DNA of 64,000 bases from an uncultured bacterium (GCA_965552055.1 CBEVQO010000002.1:416001-480000); one strand, 5' to 3'. Positions 8,789 to 19,312 are shown, counted from the first letter of the stretch. Translations and numbers: made by a program. The notes: a model not told the origin generated them from the letters alone.

Positions 8789-9949
8789 TTACCCCCTATC
8801 TTCTTTCCACACAGGATACATAACTTTGCCTATGAATAGAATTGTCTTTGTGTATTTGTCAAATATTACAAAAATGAAAGGTCTGTTCACATGAAATAGT
8901 ATGGGAATCCTATGTATTACGCGTTTCTCGAGAACAACCGAAGTTGCAGCGACTGCTTCTGTGCCTTCTTCGTCCACTCTGATGAATGTCGCATGCTTTA
9001 CCCTATCTATCCAGATTTGTTCATCGGTAATGTCTCTAAAATTTGCCAAAATGCGAGAAAAAGCTATTTTCATATCCAGAGCTTTAAGCACATCGTTTAG
9101 TTCGTATTTACACTTAATTTTAAATTTGGGTAAATGTACTTCTACTTCTCTATCTTTGAATTTCTTCAATAAATCCTGCCATTTCTGTGGATTAAACAAT
9201 AAAATTATGTCATCAACATTTATTTTTTCATGCGGAAGGATAATCATCATTTCAAATCTCTCTTTATCCTTTTTACCGTACGGCAAAATAATAGCCGAAA
9301 ATTTATCGTCAGAAAAATATTTACAGGTGATTTCCCTTTTCATCATATAACAGAGCATTTTACCTTCAGGAGTATAAAATGTATCAATATAGGTTTTTTC
9401 TTTGTCAAATTTATAAGCCCAAAGTCCCTTAAAATAAACAGCGTTAATCAAAAACATCACATCAAGTGGTTTTATAGTATCTACTATTTTTTCAATCTTT
9501 CCTCTCGTTTTTCTTTTAACCCAGTTATTTATGGTATCTTTTGCCCATTTTTTAGTAAAATCTAAATCTCTTATTTCTGCATCAAAATATTTCTTGTTTA
9601 CTTCTATGAATTTCTTTTTCACTTTAAAACCTTTGCGATACCATATTGAATTTGCCACATCCATTGTTATTGCAGAATCCCTCTTTAATAAACTATCTTT
9701 TAACTCTCTGTAAATTTTGTTTATTTCATCTTTTTTGAGATTTGAAAATCCCAAGACATTTTTAATTGCTTTTTCTGTACTGTCTCTCGCACCGTTAAGC
9801 AACATACCGAGTGCCACTGATACACTTAAAGGTGATATTACCACATTTGTGTCTCCTTCAATCTCATTTACTTTTTTGAATAGTTTAAAAGTAAATTCGT
9901 TGAATGGAGAGGAAATCAAGTTATATAATATCAAAAATAAAAGCATCAT
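8789..9949 (-). CDS. Serpin (exported), paralog of 7597..8787
   Basis: NVVISPLS, NAVYFKGLW, hinge EEGTEAVAAT, VNRPFIF. Confidence 0.93.
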   Translation of the reverse strand: MMLLFLILYNLISSPFNEFTFKLFKKVNEIEGDTNVVISPLSVSVALGMLLNGARDSTEKAIKNVLGFSNLKKDEINKIYRELKDSLLKRDSAITMDVANSIWYRKGFKVKKKFIEVNKKYFDAEIRDLDFTKKWAKDTINNWVKRKTRGKIEKIVDTIKPLDVMFLINAVYFKGLWAYKFDKEKTYIDTFYTPEGKMLCYMMKREITCKYFSDDKFSAIILPYGKKDKERFEMMIILPHEKINVDDIILLFNPQKWQDLLKKFKDREVEVHLPKFKIKCKYELNDVLKALDMKIAFSRILANFRDITDEQIWIDRVKHATFIRVDEEGTEAVAATSVVLEKRVIHRIPILFHVNRPFIFVIFDKYTKTILFIGKVMYPVWKEDRG

Positions 9950-10077
9950 CGCCAGTATTGTGGATTTTCGCTTTCCAAAATTTCGCCTTTGATTATTATT
10001 TTATCCTTACTGCCAAGTATCCTCCTCAATGTTTTTATCTTCTTTTTCAATGACTTTAATTTACCAAATTTCTTCAT
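9946..10077 (-). CDS. Small basic protein, 43 aa (MKKFGKLKSLKKKIKTLRRILGSKDKIIIKGEILESENPQYWR)
   Basis: Below the ORF-track cutoff. Fills the gap exactly, with a TGATG overlap to the upstream kinase stop and an ATGA overlap to the serpin start. Confidence 0.6.
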   Translation of the reverse strand: MKKFGKLKSLKKKIKTLRRILGSKDKIIIKGEILESENPQYWR

Positions 10078-11504
10078 CAATATTTGAAACTACTACCGCC
10101 TATGAATTCTCTGAGGATAGAAGTGGGTGGCACATCTGTTGTTTCTATAGGTAAAAAGTGTGATAGGAAATCTTTGAGTAACTGTGCTTCTTCGTATTCT
10201 TTCATATCCTCCGGTATTTCATCGAGTAAAGGAATAACAAATCTTTTAAGAACTGCAATCTCATAAAGTAAAGCGCTGTTAAAAATTTCGTCGGCATTCT
10301 CCTGATGCGGAAAGATATATTTCTCCTCTGCTTCCCTCACCGTACTCCACATTCTCAATGTATCACCTGCTCTGTGTCCTCTGTAAAAATAATCTCTTAC
10401 TATTCTGCGTAAGAGTCGTGCATGGGATGTTGAAATCCTGTTGTGGTCATCAAGATTTAAAGGTGTTAAAGCACTTACATAAATTTTAAAAGCACATCTT
10501 TCTAATTCTTCGCAAAAGATGGGATTTAAAGCATGTATCCCTTCGATTATAAGAATGCCATCTTTTGGCAGATAAAAAGGTTTATTTCTCCATTCCCTTT
10601 TTCTTGTTGTAAAATTGAATTTTGGCAAAATTACTTCTTTGCCTTTTAATATTTCTTTTATTTGTTTTTTGAAAAGCGGGATATCAATGGCTTCTGGAGC
10701 ATCGGTATCGAGTGTGCCATCGGGTTTTCTCGGACATTGCTCTGATGGCAAAAAATAGTCATCCATAGAAATTATAAAAACTTTCCTTTGATTCACCATC
10801 AATTGAATTCTTAATCTTTTTGAAAAAGTTGTTTTACCTGAACTTGAAGGTCCTGCCACCAGAATCACCCTTTTTCCTGTTTCAACGATTTTATCTGCGA
10901 GATTTGCTATCTTTTTCTCATGCAAAGCCTCTTCTATTTTTATGCAATCCGATATCTCACCTTCAACTATTTTTTCATTAAGGTCGCCAACATTTCTTAT
11001 ACCGAGTATTTCTGCCCAGTGTTCAGCTTCTTCGAATGCTTCAAAAAATTTCCTTTGCTCTTTAAACTTCTCTTCGAATAAAAGCAAAAATCCAGGGGGA
11101 TAATATTTTAACATGTAAAAGCCAATCTTTGAGAAATCGCGGAATGGCGGGAAGAAAAGATAATCATAAACATCGTCTATACCATAAATTCTTATTTTTT
11201 CCCGTTGATTATATTTTAAAAGTTTTACAACATCATTCCTTCCTTCATTTTCAAAAAATTTAATGGCTTTATCTTTTTCTAAAATTTTGCTTGAAATTTT
11301 TTTATTCTGGCACAATATTTCTTCGTATTTTTTGCACAATTTTTTGAAATTATCTTCTTTAAGCTTGAAATTTTTGATTTCGCAATAAACTCCTGTTGAA
11401 TACGAGTGTCTTATTATCAATCTTGCTTCAGGTGATAATTTTTTCAGTATGTAATATAAGAGGAGTAAAAGTGTTTTTTCTTTTTTTCTTTTATAAACTT
11501 CCAT
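10077..11504 (-). CDS. udk: Uridine/nucleoside kinase with N-terminal ThrRS-like domain
   Basis: P-loop AGPSSSGKTT, ISMDDYF, IIEGIHALNP, RLLRRIVRD, SILREFIGGS. Confidence 0.85.
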   Translation of the reverse strand: MEVYKRKKEKTLLLLLYYILKKLSPEARLIIRHSYSTGVYCEIKNFKLKEDNFKKLCKKYEEILCQNKKISSKILEKDKAIKFFENEGRNDVVKLLKYNQREKIRIYGIDDVYDYLFFPPFRDFSKIGFYMLKYYPPGFLLLFEEKFKEQRKFFEAFEEAEHWAEILGIRNVGDLNEKIVEGEISDCIKIEEALHEKKIANLADKIVETGKRVILVAGPSSSGKTTFSKRLRIQLMVNQRKVFIISMDDYFLPSEQCPRKPDGTLDTDAPEAIDIPLFKKQIKEILKGKEVILPKFNFTTRKREWRNKPFYLPKDGILIIEGIHALNPIFCEELERCAFKIYVSALTPLNLDDHNRISTSHARLLRRIVRDYFYRGHRAGDTLRMWSTVREAEEKYIFPHQENADEIFNSALLYEIAVLKRFVIPLLDEIPEDMKEYEEAQLLKDFLSHFLPIETTDVPPTSILREFIGGSSFKY

Positions 11505-11509
11505 CTTTT

Positions 11510-11536
11510 ATTGTAATCTTTATTTTAATTTGTCAA
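11510..11536 (-). promoter_or_regulatory. Leaderless promoter TTGACA-N15-TACAAT-N5-ATG
   Basis: Read directly; no SD before ATG 11504. Confidence 0.7.
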
Positions 11537-11545
11537 TGTTTAATT

Positions 11546-11700
11546 GCGAGCGTAGCGAGCATATTACATATGGGTTGATATGTCAGCCCATTACGGGTTT
11601 TTCGTTATAGCAGGGGTTTCTGGCTTTATCTGCTGTCTGCGTATTTCAGCTGGAGTAGTGGGCTGACTTAATCGGGAAGGTGGGGACAGCGGAGGAGGGG
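11546..11700 (+). repeat. Structured GC-rich intergenic element, copy 1
   Basis: GCGAGC-GTA-GCGAGC at 5' end; 13-bp inverted repeat 11582-11594/11655-11667; GGTGGGGACAG core in a G-run tract; termini shared with 17466-17588. Confidence 0.7.
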
Positions 11701-11711
11701 CTAAAAATTAC

Positions 11712-11738
11712 TTGACATATAAGAGAACCGATTAAACT
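11712..11738 (+). promoter_or_regulatory. Leaderless promoter TTGACA-N15-TAAACT-N5-ATG
   Basis: Read directly. Confidence 0.7.
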
Positions 11739-11743
11739 TAAAG

Positions 11744-14700
11744 ATGTTTTTGGCACTCCTTATATCGATTTTTCCAGAGATGAAAGATTTGATGCTCAAA
11801 CAAAAGGAATTTCTTCCAAAAATCTATCAAAATTATTATAACTTATTGCGGAAAAATCCCGAGCTGAGAGAAATTTTGAGAAAAATACCCAAAAATAGAT
11901 TGAAATTTGCCCGTAACTTAAGCAAAAAATTAAAGCAAGATGAAGCCGAAACCTTACATATTATTGCCATTCGTGTCGAATTTTTAAAAGATACTTTTTC
12001 GTTGACTTTTGGAAACGGATTGATGTGTGATACACCGAAATATTCGATGTATACAGGTGATGGATATCACAACATTTTGTATTATGACCCGCCTCATGAT
12101 TCCATTTATTTCCATTATTTGATGGTTGCTTTACGCAATTATTATCAGGATATCAGTTATGGCAAAATTTATATAACATGGGATATTGCACCAAAGGGGC
12201 TCGATACTGCATATCAATTACCTCATGAGATGGCTTATTATGGTGATACTTCAAATTATGCCCTTGGTCTTTTTATGCTGGTTCGTGATGCTATACTTGC
12301 ATGTGATGCTGACCACAATTTTCAGGTAGGCAAATATGATGGACATCTAATTTTTCACGCTGGATGCTCATGGCAGGCACAGGCAGCTTTTGGACTTACA
12401 CCCTACGATATTTTAACAGCTTATATACCATATTCTGAATATTTCCCGCCGATAATTACAAAAGAAGGAGACACCGTTTATGACGCTATAATTCTTCCGG
12501 AATCCAACTGGTATTATGTTGCTTTTGGAATGCAGGGAAGTATGTTTCATGAGTTCGCCCATCTACTTGGCGCCGTTGACCTTTATGATATCTCTTATAT
12601 GACGATTGGCGTGGGTGCATGGGACTTGATGGGTACGGGTGCCTGGAATATGCTGGGACATGTGCCCTGCAGGCTGTGTGCATTCCACCTTGAATATCTC
12701 GGTATAGTGAAGCCCAAAGTTATAACCAGAGATACTGTAATATGGGTGAAAAGATTATCACTCGCTCCTGACATTTATAAAATACCTGTAAATGAGAAAG
12801 AATATTTCCTGATAGAAAATAGATGTGCTTATATGCCGGAAAGTCTCGAAAGTACAAATCCAGATTCAAATGCTTTTAGAGTATGGAAATATGGAGTACT
12901 TGTAGATGTTAATGACTGGGATGTTTCTTTGCCGTGCAGTATTAATACATCGGGTATTGCTGTATGGCATATTGATACGCAAAAAGTTGCCATTTATGAT
13001 GATTCAAATACGGTAAATGTTGGCAGTCCCAAGGGAGTTGATATGGAAGAGGCAGATGGTGTTCAGGATTTTGAACTCCCATGGTATGAGATATCTGACT
13101 GGGATGCTGCACTTGAAGGTACACAATGGGATTTATTCTACAAGGGAAACGCAGATAGTTTTTCTTATTACACAAATCCCAGTTCTGCTTCAAATGATGG
13201 CGCTAATTCTTTTGTAAAAATGAAATTCGGAGAGATGGGCGATTCTATAAAAGTTGAAATAAAATTTGAATTTGTAAAATCGGGCTTCCCTGTTTCAAAT
13301 CTCGGTAAAGTTGATATAAACTCTCCTGTTCCTTTTGACTATGACGGCGATAATTTAGATGAAATTTTACTGATAGCAAATAAAGACAGTATCGGAATAC
13401 TTTATCTTTTTGATTACAAAAGTGGTTTAAAAATTGATACATTGTTAAAAAATTTCCCTGTTTCTTTTTCACAAATTGCAATAGGTGATATTGATGGCGA
13501 CAATCATGAAGAAATTGTATGGGGAAGTACAAAAGGTTTATGTGTTTATGACAGAGAAAAAGACACCCTTTATCTTTTTGGGATAAAAGAAGGGGTTTAT
13601 TCTGTTCCTACGATTTACGAAGGATTTGTAATTTTCGGTGCAGATGATAACAAATTGCATTGCGTATATCTTGAAAATGATAGTTTAAAAGAAAAGAAAG
13701 GTTTTCCAGTGGAAATAGGACACATGATAAGGGGTTCTGCGTGTTGTATCGGTGATTCTATTTTTGTCCTTTCGGGTGATGGAAGATTATATTGTGTATC
13801 TTTATCCGGTAAAATCTTATTTAGAGTTCTCAAAGAAAATTTGATGTTTACCGGTTTCAGTCCCGTTGCCGTTGATATAAATGGTGATGGCGAAAAGGAA
13901 ATAATTTGCGTAACCGGTACAGGTGATGTTTACGCAGTCAAATTAAACGGCGAAATTCTATGGCACAGACAGATTCCGGAAAATACTTATGAATATGCAT
14001 GGCTATCCACATCTCATCCTGTAATTGCGGACATTGATGGCGATTCTTTACCTGATATTATTTTTACTGCTGGCAAAAAATTGTATGTTTTAAATCACAA
14101 TGGTGCTTATCTAAATAATTTCCCGATTGAAGCAGATACCGGCTGGATTATTTCGACACCCATAATTTATGATATTGATGGAGATGGTGAAGTTGAGATT
14201 TCTTTTGGTCTTTCAAAAGGAAAATTTACATCATACGATGCTAATGGCAAATTGCAGATGTTTTTCCCTGTAGAAACCGGCACTCCCTGTTATTCTTCTC
14301 CCTGTATCTGCGACTGGGACGGCAATAAAAAAGCTGATATTTTCTTTGTCTCGGACACAGGTAAAATGTGGTGCATAGAATTTAATGGCAGTTACAAAAA
14401 AACAAAATGGTTCACAATTTGCAAGAATTTATCACGAAATCCTGTAATCGAATGGAATTATCCGCAAAAAGAATTTGTATTTACAAAAGAAAATTTTTAT
14501 ATTTATCCAAATCCATCAAAAGACGGAAAAATATTTTTGAGATTAACATCGCCTTCGAACGGCAAAGTAGAAATCATGATTTTAACCATCTCTGGTGATA
14601 TAAAAGCGAAATATGAAAAAGAAGTTTTAAAAGGAATAAATGATATTCCCCTATCCCTTAATCTGCCCGATGGCTTTTACATTGCACGAGTTAAAGTGCC

Positions 14701-14752
14701 TGATGGCAAATGTGGTTTTGCCAAATTTGTAATCGCCCGTAAATGGAAATAA
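11744..14752 (+). CDS. M6 (immune inhibitor A-like) metalloprotease with FG-GAP repeats and T9SS-type C-terminal domain
   Basis: HEFAHLLGAVDLY zinc motif, WDLMGTGAWN, EYFLIENR, repeated DIDGD motifs, YIYPNP C-terminal domain. Confidence 0.88.
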   Translation: MFLALLISIFPEMKDLMLKQKEFLPKIYQNYYNLLRKNPELREILRKIPKNRLKFARNLSKKLKQDEAETLHIIAIRVEFLKDTFSLTFGNGLMCDTPKYSMYTGDGYHNILYYDPPHDSIYFHYLMVALRNYYQDISYGKIYITWDIAPKGLDTAYQLPHEMAYYGDTSNYALGLFMLVRDAILACDADHNFQVGKYDGHLIFHAGCSWQAQAAFGLTPYDILTAYIPYSEYFPPIITKEGDTVYDAIILPESNWYYVAFGMQGSMFHEFAHLLGAVDLYDISYMTIGVGAWDLMGTGAWNMLGHVPCRLCAFHLEYLGIVKPKVITRDTVIWVKRLSLAPDIYKIPVNEKEYFLIENRCAYMPESLESTNPDSNAFRVWKYGVLVDVNDWDVSLPCSINTSGIAVWHIDTQKVAIYDDSNTVNVGSPKGVDMEEADGVQDFELPWYEISDWDAALEGTQWDLFYKGNADSFSYYTNPSSASNDGANSFVKMKFGEMGDSIKVEIKFEFVKSGFPVSNLGKVDINSPVPFDYDGDNLDEILLIANKDSIGILYLFDYKSGLKIDTLLKNFPVSFSQIAIGDIDGDNHEEIVWGSTKGLCVYDREKDTLYLFGIKEGVYSVPTIYEGFVIFGADDNKLHCVYLENDSLKEKKGFPVEIGHMIRGSACCIGDSIFVLSGDGRLYCVSLSGKILFRVLKENLMFTGFSPVAVDINGDGEKEIICVTGTGDVYAVKLNGEILWHRQIPENTYEYAWLSTSHPVIADIDGDSLPDIIFTAGKKLYVLNHNGAYLNNFPIEADTGWIISTPIIYDIDGDGEVEISFGLSKGKFTSYDANGKLQMFFPVETGTPCYSSPCICDWDGNKKADIFFVSDTGKMWCIEFNGSYKKTKWFTICKNLSRNPVIEWNYPQKEFVFTKENFYIYPNPSKDGKIFLRLTSPSNGKVEIMILTISGDIKAKYEKEVLKGINDIPLSLNLPDGFYIARVKVPDGKCGFAKFVIARKWK

Positions 14753-15600
14753 TACCCGTTGCTTTCGATAGTCTGGGAACAAGGAGTATGTGCACATTTA
14801 TAAAATCAGATGATATAAACATTTTAATTGACCCTGCGGTTGCTCTTGGACCAAGAAGATATGGCTTGCCACCACATAAAAAGGAACTCGAAAGAAAAGA
14901 GGAACACTGGAAAAAAATAAAAGAATATGCAAAAAAAGCAGATTTGATAATAATAACACATTATCATTATGACCATCACAATCCAAATTATCCCGAACTT
15001 TTTAAAGACAAAATTTTATTTATAAAGCATCCTGAGAAAAACATAAACCGCAGTCAATATGTGCGTGCAAAGCGCTTTCTGGAGCGAATTGAGGGATATC
15101 CAAAGGAGATAAGAATTGCAGAAGGTGTGGAAGAAAAATTTGGAAAATTAAGGTTAAAAATATCACAAAGTGTATGGCATGGTAACGATAAAAGATTGGG
15201 TTTTGTAGTGGAAATTTTTATCGAAGAAGATAAAAGATTTTTGTTCACATCGGATGTTGAAGGACCTGTTACAGATGAACAAACTTTATTTATTCTTGAG
15301 AACGACCCCGATATTATTTTTTCGGATGGTCCCATGACCTATCAGCCACAGGTTTATGATGAAGAAACTTTAAAGAAGGCAATTGAAAATATAAAAAAGA
15401 TAATCGAAAAGACAGGAGTAAAAAAATATATTCTTGACCATCATCTTGTAAGAGACCTTGAATTTTCTCGTAAGATAAAAGAGATTTTTGAAGTAGCAGA
15501 GCAAAATGGCTGTGAGATTATGACGGCTGCGAAATTCGGTGGCTTTGAAGAAGATTTCCTTGAAGCACACAGAAAAGATTTGTGGAAAGGAGAAAAATAA
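14743..15600 (+). CDS. Metallo-beta-lactamase fold hydrolase (UPF0282-like)
   Basis: DSLGTRSM, IDPAVALGPRRYGLPPH, THYHYDHH, ILDHHLVRD. Confidence 0.8.
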   Translation: MEIIPVAFDSLGTRSMCTFIKSDDINILIDPAVALGPRRYGLPPHKKELERKEEHWKKIKEYAKKADLIIITHYHYDHHNPNYPELFKDKILFIKHPEKNINRSQYVRAKRFLERIEGYPKEIRIAEGVEEKFGKLRLKISQSVWHGNDKRLGFVVEIFIEEDKRFLFTSDVEGPVTDEQTLFILENDPDIIFSDGPMTYQPQVYDEETLKKAIENIKKIIEKTGVKKYILDHHLVRDLEFSRKIKEIFEVAEQNGCEIMTAAKFGGFEEDFLEAHRKDLWKGEK

Positions 15601-15601
15601 C

Positions 15602-15628
15602 TTGACTTTACAGTTCTTTAATTAAAAT
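15602..15628 (+). promoter_or_regulatory. Leaderless promoter TTGACT-N15-TAAAAT (second ATG at 15634 is 5 nt downstream)
   Basis: Read directly. Confidence 0.65.
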
Positions 15629-15630
15629 AA

Positions 15631-16044
15631 ATGATGAAAAGAGATTTACCTTTGACTCCACAAGAAGCAATTGAAAGGTCAGAAGAATATTATAACAACG
15701 CCAAAGAAATTTTAAAAGATGTGGAAATAAAATTTGGGATTTACACTGATGGCAAAAAGGTAAGGGAAGCATGTGCAATGGGTTATCTGTCTGCATTGAC
15801 CGCAATAGACGCATATCTGCTGAAAAGAGGTAAAAAGCCAGAAGAATTGCCAACATCTTTTGCGGAATACAGAGAGGTGGTATCAAAAATGCCTTACAAT
15901 GGAAAGCTAACAGCATCTTTAACCGCAGTTTACCAGAACCTTCATGTGCTCGGATATTACAGAGGCGGTATAGAAGTAGAGATGATTAAATCTGGCTTCA
16001 AACATGCAAAGAGAATAATCGATACAATTAAGAAACTGGTATGA
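15631..16044 (+). CDS. DUF5618-like (HEPN-fold-like) protein, copy 1
   Basis: YYNNAKEIL...YTDGKKVREACAMGYLSALTAIDAYL...YQNLHVLGYY resembles DUF5618 as I recall it. Confidence 0.65.
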   Translation: MMKRDLPLTPQEAIERSEEYYNNAKEILKDVEIKFGIYTDGKKVREACAMGYLSALTAIDAYLLKRGKKPEELPTSFAEYREVVSKMPYNGKLTASLTAVYQNLHVLGYYRGGIEVEMIKSGFKHAKRIIDTIKKLV

Positions 16045-16454
16045 TGAAGAGGGATTTGCCCTTAAATCCTAAAGAAGCGATTGAAAGGTCTGAAGAATAT
16101 TACAATAATGCGAAAGAAATTTTAAAAGATGTTGAGATAAAATTTGGTCTTTATACCGATGGCAAAAAGGTAAGGGAGGCATGTGCAATGGGCTATCTGT
16201 CTGCATTGACCGCAATAGACGCATATCTGCTGAAAAGAGGAAAAAAGCCAGAGGAATTGCCAACATCTTTCGCGGAATACAGAGAGGTGGTATCAAAAAT
16301 GCCTTACAATGGAAAGCTAACAGCATCTTTAACCGCAGTTTATCAAAATCTTCATGTTTTTGGATATTACAGGGGTGGAATAGAAGTAGAGATGATTAAA
16401 TCTGGCTTCAAACATGCAAAAAGAATAATCGATACGATTAAGAAACTGGTGTAA
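16041..16454 (+). CDS. DUF5618-like protein, copy 2
   Basis: 133/137 aa identical to copy 1; ATGA overlap. Confidence 0.65.
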   Translation: MMKRDLPLNPKEAIERSEEYYNNAKEILKDVEIKFGLYTDGKKVREACAMGYLSALTAIDAYLLKRGKKPEELPTSFAEYREVVSKMPYNGKLTASLTAVYQNLHVFGYYRGGIEVEMIKSGFKHAKRIIDTIKKLV

Positions 16455-17455
16455 TGGAAAGAATACTGCTTGTTAGGACGCATGCGATCGGAGATGTATT
16501 GCTGACAACACCGGCTGTAAAAGCTGCGAGAAAAATTTATCCAGATGCAAAAATAGATTACTTAACAACAAAATGGTCAAAAGAAGCAATAACTTTAAAT
16601 CCTAATATAGACGAAATAATAGCAGTGGATGACGATGTTTTTTTCTCAAAAAATCCTACAAAAATCATCAAATTGGTAAAAGAATTGAAAAAAAGAAATT
16701 ATGATAGAATTTATGCATTTCACAGATCAAAGAAAATCCATCTTTTATGCAAGTTAATAGGCAATAAAGTAACAGGAATATCTGATGGCGATTTTAATCC
16801 TTTTCTCGATGAAAAAATAGTTTTAAAAAGGGAAAACAGCAATTATGTGGCAGATGATTATCTAAAAATGTTTAACATTGAAATTGAAAATTCTTCTCTC
16901 GAATTTTACTGGAGCAAGGAAGATGAAATTTTTATTGATAATTTAATTGGTGATTTAAGGTTTGTCTGTGTAGCACCTGGTGGTGCACATAATCCTGCGG
17001 AAAGCGTCTGGCAAAAATTGTGGAAGATTGAGAATTTTATAAAAGTAATTAAATATTTGAAAAACAGGAAGGAAAAAGTTATAATAGTGGGTGGCAAGAG
17101 CGATGAAAAAATTTGTAAGGAAATCGAAGAAAAATGCGAAATTTTAAATCTGTGCGGTAAATTAACTTTAAAGCATCTCGGAGTTTTGTTGAAAAGGAGT
17201 AAATTTTTATTAACAAATGATAGTGCACCCCTTCATATTGCTGTTGCGGTAAATACTCCTGTTATCGGGCTTTTTGGACCCACATCCCCTGATGTGCTTT
17301 TACCCAAAAGAGAAAACATTATAGCAATAAGGAGCGATGCCGAATGTAGCCCCTGTTATGTTAACCGCAGATTTAAAGGATGTAAAAAGCCAATTTGTAT
17401 GGATATGATAACCACTGATAAAGTAATCTCCGTAATTGAGAAGAAATTCTATTAA
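16454..17455 (+). CDS. Glycosyltransferase family 9 (LPS heptosyltransferase-like)
   Basis: AIGDVLLTTP, LTNDSAPLHIAVAVNTPVIGLFGPT. Confidence 0.9.
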   Translation: MERILLVRTHAIGDVLLTTPAVKAARKIYPDAKIDYLTTKWSKEAITLNPNIDEIIAVDDDVFFSKNPTKIIKLVKELKKRNYDRIYAFHRSKKIHLLCKLIGNKVTGISDGDFNPFLDEKIVLKRENSNYVADDYLKMFNIEIENSSLEFYWSKEDEIFIDNLIGDLRFVCVAPGGAHNPAESVWQKLWKIENFIKVIKYLKNRKEKVIIVGGKSDEKICKEIEEKCEILNLCGKLTLKHLGVLLKRSKFLLTNDSAPLHIAVAVNTPVIGLFGPTSPDVLLPKRENIIAIRSDAECSPCYVNRRFKGCKKPICMDMITTDKVISVIEKKFY

Positions 17456-17465
17456 AATTTTTAAT

Positions 17466-17588
17466 GCGAGCGAAAGCGAGTAAGGCACTGCCTTGACCAC
17501 GCTGTGGCTTTATAAACACCCTTCCCGTAATGAATCACAAGTACCTTGAGAGGGGTGTGCACGAGGGCGGTGGGGACAGGGAGGTGGG
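17466..17588 (+). repeat. Structured GC-rich intergenic element, copy 2
   Basis: GCGAGC-GAAA-GCGAGT; stems 17482-17494, 17497-17507 and 17516-17524/17550-17558; GGTGGGGACAG core; four G3+ runs at 17565-17588. Confidence 0.7.
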
Positions 17589-17598
17589 CAAAAAATAT

Positions 17599-17625
17599 TT
17601 GACAAATAAATAATTTGATTAAATT
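17599..17625 (+). promoter_or_regulatory. Leaderless promoter TTGACA-N15-TAAATT-N5-ATG
   Basis: Read directly. Confidence 0.7.
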
Positions 17626-17630
17626 TAGAG

Positions 17631-18344
17631 ATGAGATTCGATGGTAGAAATTATGATGAACTGAGACCCCTTGAAATCATAAAGGATTATTTAAAGGATG
17701 TTGAAGGTTCGTGTCTTATAAAACTTGGCAATACCCATGTTATCTGTACTGCTACTGTTCAATCAGGTGCGCCGAAATTTGCGAAGGACCAGGGTATTGG
17801 CTGGGTTACCGCGGAATACAGGATGATACCGAGAGCTGTTCCCGAGCGCCTTCCCCGTGACAAAATAAACGGAAGGTCAATAGAGATACAGAGAATTATA
17901 GGAAGGTCTTTGAGAGGAGCATGCGATTTATCTTTACTAAATGGTTATACAATATGGATTGATTGTGATGTGATACAGGCAGATGGTGGCACAAGGGTTA
18001 CTTCGATCATCGGTGGTTTTGTTGCACTTTATGATGCAATTCAACATATGTTATCACTTGGAATGATTGAAAAAAGTCCCATCAAAAAATTCATAGGCGC
18101 TGTAAGTGTGGGTATTGTGGAAGGCAAACCTATGCTTGATTTAACTTTTGAAGAAGATTCAAAAGCAGATGTTGACATGAATGTCGTAATGACCGAAAAT
18201 TATGAGATTATTGAATTACAGGCAACGGGAGAAGGAGGAACTTTAAAAGAAGAAGATTTAAAATTAATGCTTGAACTTGCCAAAAAAGGAATAAATGAAA
18301 TAATAAATAAGGAAAAAGAAGTCCTGTGGTTGAAGCGTAGTTAA
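17631..18344 (+). CDS. rph: Ribonuclease PH
   Basis: GWVTAEYRMIPRA, EIQRIIGRSLR, DVIQADGGTR, DVDMNVVMT. Confidence 0.95.
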   Translation: MRFDGRNYDELRPLEIIKDYLKDVEGSCLIKLGNTHVICTATVQSGAPKFAKDQGIGWVTAEYRMIPRAVPERLPRDKINGRSIEIQRIIGRSLRGACDLSLLNGYTIWIDCDVIQADGGTRVTSIIGGFVALYDAIQHMLSLGMIEKSPIKKFIGAVSVGIVEGKPMLDLTFEEDSKADVDMNVVMTENYEIIELQATGEGGTLKEEDLKLMLELAKKGINEIINKEKEVLWLKRS

Positions 18345-18355
18345 TCCACCTTCAA

Positions 18356-19312
18356 ATGCCTCTAATAGTTTTTGAAAGAAAAGTTCGTGCTGGTGCAGGA
18401 ATGCGTCTTGACAAATATTTACATCAAGTAGGACTCGGACTCTCTCGTACACAAATCCAGAAATTAATAGAAGAAGGCAAAGTACTGGTAAATGGCAGAC
18501 CTGTAAAACCCAGTTATACTTTGAAAAGAGGAGATGAAATTTATGCAGAATACGAAAGAAAAGAACCTTTAAAGATAGAACCTGAACCCATTCCCCTTGA
18601 TATAATTTATGAAGATGATTACATAGTAGTTGTGAACAAGCCTGCTGGTATGGTTACGCACCCTGCGCCCGGCAATCTACGTGGCACCCTTGTAAATGCG
18701 CTTTTACATCACTGCGGCTTGGCAAAAGCAGATAGTATCGCAAGACCAGGCGTAGTCCATAGACTTGATAAAGACACATCGGGAGTTATTGTTTTCGCAA
18801 AAGAAAAGATTGCCTTATCAAATCTTGCAGAACAACTGCAAAAAAGAAGAATGAAAAAAGAATATTTAACATTTGTATGGGGAAATTTGCCACTGGATAA
18901 AGGAATAATCGATGCTCCGATTGGCAGGGATTTTATCGATAGGAAAAAAATGGCAGTAACACCTCTTTTATCCAAAGATGCTATTACCGAATATTTTGTT
19001 GAAAAGCGTTATAAATACATAACATTTGCGAGGGTGCATATTTTAACAGGCAGGACACATCAAATAAGGGTACACATGGCGCACATAGGGCATCCTGTTG
19101 TGGGTGACGAAACTTATCAGGGTAGACAGCGCTTATCGGGTATACCCCATGAATTTTTCGAAAAGGTTTTAGAAATTATGCAAAGACAGGCGTTGCATTC
19201 ACATAAACTTGGTTTTGAACATCCTGTTACAAAAAAATGGATGGAATTTGAAGCTCCTCTTCCAGAAGACATGAGAAACTTAAAAGAGTTTTTGGAGGCA
19301 CAAATTAATTGA
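18356..19312 (+). CDS. rluD: RluA/RluD family pseudouridine synthase with S4 domain
   Basis: RLDKYL S4 domain, VNKPAGM, HRLDKDTSG, TGRTHQIRVH. Confidence 0.9.
   Translation: MPLIVFERKVRAGAGMRLDKYLHQVGLGLSRTQIQKLIEEGKVLVNGRPVKPSYTLKRGDEIYAEYERKEPLKIEPEPIPLDIIYEDDYIVVVNKPAGMVTHPAPGNLRGTLVNALLHHCGLAKADSIARPGVVHRLDKDTSGVIVFAKEKIALSNLAEQLQKRRMKKEYLTFVWGNLPLDKGIIDAPIGRDFIDRKKMAVTPLLSKDAITEYFVEKRYKYITFARVHILTGRTHQIRVHMAHIGHPVVGDETYQGRQRLSGIPHEFFEKVLEIMQRQALHSHKLGFEHPVTKKWMEFEAPLPEDMRNLKEFLEAQIN

Follow-up and report, generated by a model that had tools for sequence, protein, structure and literature searches.

A high-copy mosaic repeat with tandem-GA mini-hairpins and a G-rich tail in the genome of an uncultured bacterium

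In BOX elements of Streptococcus pneumoniae the end modules are fixed and the middle units between them vary in number, and the attC sites of integrons are structured on one strand, with RYYYAAC/GTTRRRY core boxes that close a long imperfect stem and with cassette polarity. I describe here a family of intergenic repeats that recalls both, found in the genome of an uncultured bacterium by way of two GC-rich islands in a stretch of 64,000 nucleotides (GCA_965552055.1 CBEVQO010000002.1:416001-480000, the whole of which I call the window). Each copy has a mini-hairpin (the head) towards one end and a G-rich tail at the other. An earlier reading of the window alone (the original prediction) took the islands for a twice-repeated structured non-coding element; the genome holds not two copies but about 70. 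The best likeness is to mosaic repeats of the REP, BIME and BOX kind, yet the family lacks the features that define REP sequences.

The passages devoted to REP, BIME and REPIN sequences with their RAYT enzymes and to CGTC-type REPs (PMC3733652, PMC8266576, bioRxiv 10.1101/279083) describe high-copy, intergenic, lineage-specific mosaics with strand-specific hairpins that keep a conserved mismatch, all of which applies here, and they describe the CGTC type as likewise without a dedicated transposase. Where a REP bears a GTAG/GTGG or CGTC tag 0-2 nt from the hairpin foot, however, the heads of this family are preceded by TAAT/TATT (64 left flanks); where REP hairpins form inverted pairs, its head, second hairpin and chained heads are all direct; and no Y1 gene flanked by the repeats was found in the host genome. 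The G-rich tail, an AT array and a middle with ~18/36/73-bp periodicity also set the family apart from REPs, which lie mostly downstream of genes, whereas the family often lies upstream of promoters. BOX elements are unrelated in sequence, and the middles of the present family are degenerate, invertible and of several types. The BoxC/PIT intrastrand-triplex repeats of E. coli, structure-forming and, in the sections concerned of PMC4666352, tied to local instability between strains with no known enzyme, and the GGGNATC quadruplex repeats of Xanthomonas and Nostoc, as treated in part of PMC4692102, are similarly intergenic, with one-strand non-B potential and no known mover. These are short single-module or simple repeats, whereas copies of the family are multi-module, 58-463 bp in length, and bear tandem-GA hairpins. 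Phage G4/ssiA priming sites and N4 promoters have, by the account in the relevant portion of PMC13037366, the same GCGNAGC/GCGNNAGC mini-hairpin core; the family differs in its ~70 dispersed chromosomal copies, its tandem-GA clamp and the lack of a replication-strand bias. No description of these motifs was found in open-access texts (without supplements).

The host genome (G000; 2.23 Mb, ~35.5% GC, 97% complete, in 15 contigs cited below as C1, C2 and so on) finds its best-matching sequencing runs among hydrothermal-vent metagenomes, and gene calls made for this analysis gave 2022 genes and 93% coding DNA. A genome-wide scan for heads and tails returned 78 of the former and 70 of the latter, which bears out the original prediction in so far as it proposed a multi-copy non-coding element. 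I favor, at a probability of about 0.48, the reading that this is a species-specific mosaic repeat which the replication-repair and recombination machinery of the host, and no enzyme belonging to the repeat, copies, rearranges and employs as a landing place for genes. New here are gene differences between strains on the head side, integron remnants at heads, fusions to half attC sites, and expansions of similar design in three other genomes, and the copies likely act as landing places at which extra genes come and go.

Read along the G-rich strand, a copy consists of AT-rich 11-bp repeats (from one unit to an array of ~100 bp), the head hairpin, a linker, a second hairpin or a type B stem, the G-tail and finally TAAWAATT. 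The second hairpin is built like the head (CACACCCC-GA-NN-GNA-NN-GA-GGGGTGTG). The 66 copies with a clear head comprise 7 short ones (58-65 bp), 15 of type A (~97 bp), 24 of type B (154-162 bp), 9 of type C (314-323 bp) and 11 others of up to 463 bp. In long copies G/T-rich units split the second hairpin at its tip, with T-tracts recurring at periods near 18, 36, 55 and 72 bp, and the type B middle has a G/T-rich loop of ~60 bp that is variable in sequence and nearly fixed in length. Comparison of the copies shows end modules that are near-invariant and middles that drift. A coding origin of the middles was rejected, since their lengths vary by single bases, and element lengths may be helically phased (resultant 0.68, p 0.017, for 12 length classes that are not independent of one another), but multiples of the ~18-bp period of the middles mimic such phasing. 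The right end is precise, with conservation for ~8 bases past the G-tail, and the left end is ragged. The commonest tail core is GGGGACAG, and variants with ACTG, ATAG and ATTG also occur; a GTT triplet often follows the head by ~13 nt. An intact copy often has older, degenerate partial copies on its head side. A BoxC-type triplex repeat has a hairpin followed by a mirror-repeat purine strand; of mirror words, the short GGGGTG..GTGGGG and GGGCT..TCGGG were seen in copies by eye, without statistics.

The 70 non-coding heads vary in a patterned way. Their outer pairs are GC..GC in 49, AC..GT in 15 and mismatched in 6; the tandem is GA/GA in 66 and TC/GA, which pairs perfectly, in 2; the loop is GNA in 40 and GNNA in 30; and the inner stem has 2 bp in 48 heads and 3 bp in the other 22, its arms matched by construction of the pattern. 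The same pattern found 4 matches in the reversed genome, and tandem-GA mini-hairpins sought without a set motif numbered 100, 80 of them non-coding, as against 0-6 non-coding matches for the AG, TC, GG and AA controls. In these variants the heads covary as single-stranded DNA hairpins. Canonical G-quadruplex motifs number 67 in the genome, of which 53 are non-coding: 46 within copies of the family and 7 others in a degenerate copy and in a second repeat family. A quadruplex pattern fits 45 of the 70 tails if loops are held to <=7 nt and all 70 if loops of <=12 nt are admitted. The G-rich strand is predicted to fold into mini-hairpins and a G-quadruplex.

The family could also be read as small structured RNAs, or as leader or trailer RNA motifs: 29 of the 70 head loops are GNRA tetraloops, and type B keeps an invariant long-range stem. 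The 40 GNA triloops speak for DNA instead. In the pertinent part of PMC13037366, DNA hairpins of GCGNAGC and GCGNNAGC greatly exceed their RNA counterparts in stability and bind single-strand binding protein poorly, the RNA form r(GCGAAAGC) melting at only 39 C. Twenty-three copies, among them the first island of the window as the original prediction had it, lie behind both neighboring promoters, and Rfam holds no match (window at the gathering threshold; three element loci at E<=1). I can give the RNA reading hardly any credence; of the options in the original prediction, which named both single-stranded DNA and an RNA family, the covariation fits the former better.

Of the copies, 23 lie between divergent genes, 41 at tandem junctions (25 in one orientation and 16 in the other) and 5 between convergent genes, and one more is found where a contig ends. 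A tail is followed within 40 nt by a -35-like box in 40 cases, and the spacing has two preferred values (9-10 nt in 17, 20-22 nt in 12). Of the tails that face gene ends, 12 of 30 supply a TAG stop, although TAG accounts for only 261 of 2022 stops genome-wide, and one protein with such a stop is two residues longer than its paralogues; the A-tract therefore probably belongs to the element. The preferred spacings, the excess of TAG stops and the near-invariance of terminal modules beside drifting middles are what one would expect of a domesticated DNA signal on the promoter side or at gene boundaries, with the A-tract acting as a UP-like sequence and the G/C-skewed, structured body as insulator or terminator. 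Promoters free of the element, however, already carry an A-tract at the same position; copies face promoters and gene ends alike, their 23:5 split of divergent and convergent sites following the available DNA (39,081:7,692 bp); and a search of 271 further genomes of the phylum, none of them from the host's own family, did not find the repeat. A domesticated signal is to my mind quite improbable. Copies within 15 kb of each other share orientation more often than not (24 vs 11, p 0.04).

No target-site duplication accompanies the copies: the longest word shared by the two flanks averages 6.23, against 6.25 after shuffling (66 copies), and the ends show only short AT-rich inverted flanks (AATTTTTA / TAAAAATT) with no copy-specific excess. 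A precise right end, a ragged left end and the lack of a duplication would suit an orphaned, non-autonomous HUH element (of RAYT/TIRYT or IS200/IS605-like type) whose enzyme has been lost or falls outside the assembly, the mosaics being BIME-like products of cleavage and strand transfer. So would hairpins on one strand with a conserved mismatch, of the kind that HUH enzymes recognize in the passages at hand of PMC8266576, and the outer heads of chained copies, which end sharply at the hairpin foot. The tail core GGGGACAG, moreover, fits the TIRtron motif GGGGWSAS as it appears in parts of PMC3733652 and bioRxiv 279083. This is the main rival, though I hold it rather unlikely. Tails are single, with no inverted partner and no Y1 gene, and the ACTG, ATAG and ATTG variants break the TIRtron consensus; no GTAG, GTGG or CGTC tag stands at the head foot; and PF01797, the Y1/RAYT family, has no match in the host genome, by a search that was positive in 6 of 14 controls, or in three genomes with look-alike repeats (G087, G089 and the single-contig G272, described below).

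A clean empty site is missing as well. No filled/empty pair was found in contigs from other strains, nor in four DNA runs over window positions 9500-19000, so that the vacant sites anticipated by the original prediction at udk/M6 and GT9/rph did not appear, and one strain contig has the first island in the same place; no read joint in the four runs skips either island, but contigs of these runs break at the copies, and absence is therefore unproven. The original prediction also offered a trans-acting HUH/RAYT enzyme or reverse transcriptase, none of which turned up in the 97% complete assembly: reverse transcriptase, TnpB, rve_3 (PF13683) and DDE_Tnp_1 (PF01609) gave no match, and paralog clusters of the host include no multi-copy transposase. 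Nor was an autonomous partner found, for no head and tail enclose an open reading frame. A target duplication and an autonomous element with the same ends, as expected of a miniature element of a DDE transposase, were thus not seen, the DDE families searched being PF01609 and PF13683. What the host genome does contain is one UvrC-sized GIY-YIG gene, two XerC/D-like genes, a damaged integrase and a single IS110 (L018:2425-3450, on C6), of whose ends a ~230-bp internally deleted derivative lies at C1:358245-358474. The IS110 ends match their own remnants and share no sequence with the body of the element; a right-end fragment adjoins one head (C5:37481-37533). Several small-gene families of the genome form tandem arrays of 10-15 members, and no transposase is found among its multi-copy genes.

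Strains differ around the copies, and mostly on one side. Head flanks are not collinear with the host genome in 5 of 17 testable strain contigs (12 are collinear); for tail flanks the figure is 2 of 18 (16 are collinear). One contig (L031) has a different gene on the head side. Another (L034) keeps body and tail, differs in the head and has gained 1.5 kb. The added stretch contains a remnant of an integrase promoter, a gene with an M23 domain and half of an attC-like site, the last fused to the tail of the second family. In a third (L043), an insertion of 1.18 kb at the 3' end of a tRNA, absent from the host genome, places a copy between a nucleotidyltransferase gene and an aspartyl-protease gene.

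Remnants of integrons point the same way. An integron-like locus (L017:4406-11961, corresponding to C9:28405-35960 of G000) has a co-oriented integrase, an attI-like site and attC-like sites, with cassettes for an AccI-type restriction pair and nucleases; its integrase scores below the TIGR02249 cut-off and has a 25-residue in-frame deletion relative to 11 homologues. The promoter and start of this integrase recur at 5 loci in the genome, 4 of which adjoin a head, as compared with none of 12 homologous integrase loci in other genomes of the phylum; remnants without an integrase lie at C7:29467, C10:26358, C2:13716 and C3:55132. Two stretches, C2:13676-14918 and C9:28370-35959, have cargo enclosed by heads in direct repeat; the second of them closes with a fusion of a head with half an attC at the hairpin tip (C9:35927-35960). 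For four of the six paralogues of a large secreted protein, the promoter is joined to a remnant; four different copies are concerned, each with the remnant on its head side.

That fusion, the GTT triplet past the head, and attC-like sites here and elsewhere in the phylum that bear the same tandem-GA/GNA tips on one strand might be taken to mean that the repeats are decayed attC sites which the resident integron-like integrase has dispersed. I regard this as highly improbable. There are no paired core boxes and no long attC stem, only the GT of the triplet is kept, and the polarity of cassettes is absent, gene orientation at tandem junctions being mixed (25 vs 16); fusions occur at the hairpin tip rather than the core site; and the integrase is missing 25 residues present in its 11 homologues. 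A scripted attC scan found 0 sites, but it missed the known attC-like sites too and so is no evidence.

As to distribution, the tail pattern was absent from 40 relatives, and a BLAST search with the first island against the 271 genomes gave four weak matches of 21-30 bp, taken as chance. Scans for the tail covered genomes of the phylum, metagenomes and viral sequences. The metagenomes yielded 22 contigs, all 94-100% identical to the host genome over the aligned parts. Viral sequences gave one match to the tail pattern, inside a coding sequence, and none to the second hairpin, the pattern of the second family or the integrase; the head alone was found there at 22 loci in unrelated contexts. A 13-14-mer from the head occurs in 135 of the 271 genomes, where attC-like sites and further repeats contain it, and so the head by itself is no marker of the family. 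Short tandem units with a tandem-GA hairpin were also seen directly after tRNA- or tmRNA-like 3' ends in two other genomes of the phylum (G160:C1:1395010-1395137, L097; G145:C36, L094).

The second family in the host genome has about 13 copies, each with a GNA hairpin, a (GGGY)n tract, an A-tract and then a promoter (C1:36164-36208 and about 12 more sites; L123); one copy lies upstream of the RNase P RNA gene, and the one locus compared with Rfam at E<=1 had no match. Among 226 genomes searched, G087 and G089 have 53 and 144 copies of a hairpin plus G-tract (L112-L160), arranged in G089 (378 kb examined) as tandem units of ~200 bp with inverted ends. A scan across GTDB, made with the design of the second family, found 14 loci in Streptomyces, Alpha- and Gammaproteobacteria, Chloroflexota, Clostridia and others. 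Copies were counted in five of the matching genomes: 63 in G272, a single-contig alphaproteobacterial chromosome (L216-L227) in which the copies also carry tandem-GA hairpins, and 2-5 in the other four. An enzyme shared by G087, G089 and G272 was considered and rejected: neither Y1 nor IS110 was found in them, and their complement of one UvrC-sized GIY-YIG and two tyrosine recombinases each equals that of non-carriers. One could see in all this an undescribed class of repeats that crosses phyla, made of GA-clamped GNA mini-hairpins and a one-strand G-quadruplex tract, which would do without an enzyme and act as portable landing pads for integrons and accessory genes. I think this unlikely. The look-alikes share a design but not a sequence with the family studied, and I claim no common origin.

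Anatomy, copy number, head covariation, the lack of target duplication, the strain differences beside the heads and the absence from the assembly of the enzymes searched for are matters of observation; the way in which the host would spread and reshape the repeat I infer as follows. Once exposed, the G-rich strand would fold its GNA mini-hairpins and G-tail, stalling or redirecting synthesis. Template switching at the stems could then give rise to inverted middles, head-to-head deletions, 'corrected' perfect stems and fusions to the tips of attC hairpins. Homologous recombination within head or linker would then admit incoming DNA that bears a copy, and it is proposed that for this reason the neighbor on the tail side usually stays while the cargo on the head side changes. 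Copies would persist only in harmless positions, ahead of -35 boxes and where genes end.

Several points weigh against this reading. Host recombination accounts better for the shuffling of copies than for their first arrival at ~70 unrelated sites, and a right end so precise resembles one defined by an enzyme. The search for enzymes in the host genome covered eight Pfam families rather than the whole proteome, with DDE families other than those named left aside; the search for Y2 matched none of the controls either and hence carries no weight; and with the genome in 15 contigs an enzyme gene could fall outside the assembly. The flank counts have no matched set of element-free intergenic regions beside them, the strain cases may depend on one another, and a single event could lie behind the integron remnants. 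Strains differ at 34 of 2318 bases within elements and 41 of 4087 in the flanks, only slightly more often in the former. The folds of head and tail stand as predictions. Private mutations show no excess of C-to-T on the G-rich strand, and orientation shows no replication-strand bias evident to the eye (13+/8- on C2 and 8+/3- on C3, contigs of opposite skew, and 5+/5- on C5), so that long exposure as a single strand is unsupported.

The features of the two islands in the window are collected in Table 1. The window has two occurrences of the head motif and two of the tail motif; the expectation from 100 shuffles is 0.00 for each. The islands, their heads with GTA and GAAA loops, their common orientation and their starts are as the original prediction gave them; each runs one base longer (to 11701 and 17589). 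Its -35 boxes are there too, TTGACA beginning 11 and 10 bp past the last G (at 11712 and 17599) and the reverse TGTCAA at 11531-11536, and, as it held for the window, boxes at divergent junctions genome-wide lie close together (a peak at 8-10 bp, mostly <35 bp). Copy 1 separates two divergent promoters, one of a uridine-kinase-like gene and one of the gene for an M6/FG-GAP protein; copy 2 has a GT9 gene on one side and rph on the other. Both stems it described exist (13 bp, 11582-11594/11655-11667; 9 bp, 17516-17524/17550-17558), each with one G.T pair, but the 9-bp stem arises in a rearranged copy and is no feature of the family: the middle of copy 2 is the reverse complement of the module at C5-113721, flipped between arms AAGGYAC/GTRCCTT, and such an inverted middle follows 6 heads genome-wide. 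Folded as a whole, copy 1 does only modestly better than shuffles (z -2.15 as DNA and -1.62 as RNA) and copy 2 no better (z -0.01 and -0.72), by programs that do not score sheared GA pairs or quadruplexes. Between the islands lie two near-identical tandem DUF5618 genes (15631-16454), with 14 paralogues genome-wide, often in tandem runs; read joints suggest strain differences in that region.

Table 1. Features of the two copies and their borders, in window coordinates.
Feature	Position	Strand	Remarks
-35-like box (TTGACA on - strand) of uridine-kinase-like gene 10077-11504	11531..11536	-	Pfam PF00485 for the gene
Copy 1 AT-rich left flank	11537..11545	+	Single truncated unit of 11-bp AT repeat (array ~100 bp in longest copies)
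Copy 1, type B member	11546..11701	+	One of 24 genome copies of 154-162 bp
Copy 1 head mini-hairpin GC-GA-GC-GTA-GC-GA-GC	11546..11560	+	Tandem GA:GA, GNA loop
Copy 1 conserved linker	11561..11581	+	Core ATTACATATGGGT
Copy 1 type B middle	11582..11667	+	Near-invariant arms 11582-11594 / 11655-11667
Copy 1 G-rich tail	11674..11701	+	Quadruplex-compatible only if loops <=12 nt allowed (type B)
Copy 1 conserved A-tract right end TAAWAATT	11702..11709	+	Followed by -35 box 11712-11717 of M6/FG-GAP gene
Copy 2 AT-rich left flank	17452..17465	+	Overlaps stop codon of GT9 gene (16454-17455)
Copy 2, rearranged 124-bp member	17466..17589	+	
Copy 2 head mini-hairpin GC-GA-GC-GAAA-GC-GA-GT	17466..17481	+	GAAA loop
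Copy 2 middle module, inverted orientation	17482..17547	+	Between arms AAGGCAC / GTACCTT
Copy 2, 3' arm of the family's second tandem-GA hairpin	17548..17562	+	Usual 5' arm absent
Copy 2 G-rich tail	17563..17589	+	Fits canonical four-run G-quadruplex pattern
Copy 2 A-tract and -35 box (17599-17604) of rph (17631-18344)	17590..17604	+	

For the question of how repeats that have no transposase, such as CGTC REPs, BOX and BoxC, originate and spread, this family offers a sharp test, with about 70 copies in a genome that is 93% coding, rearrangements that can be read, variants among strains and look-alikes in other phyla. If the copies do act as landing pads, they would represent a simple route of gene traffic in an uncultured vent bacterium; if they do not, the family is one more lineage-specific mosaic repeat.

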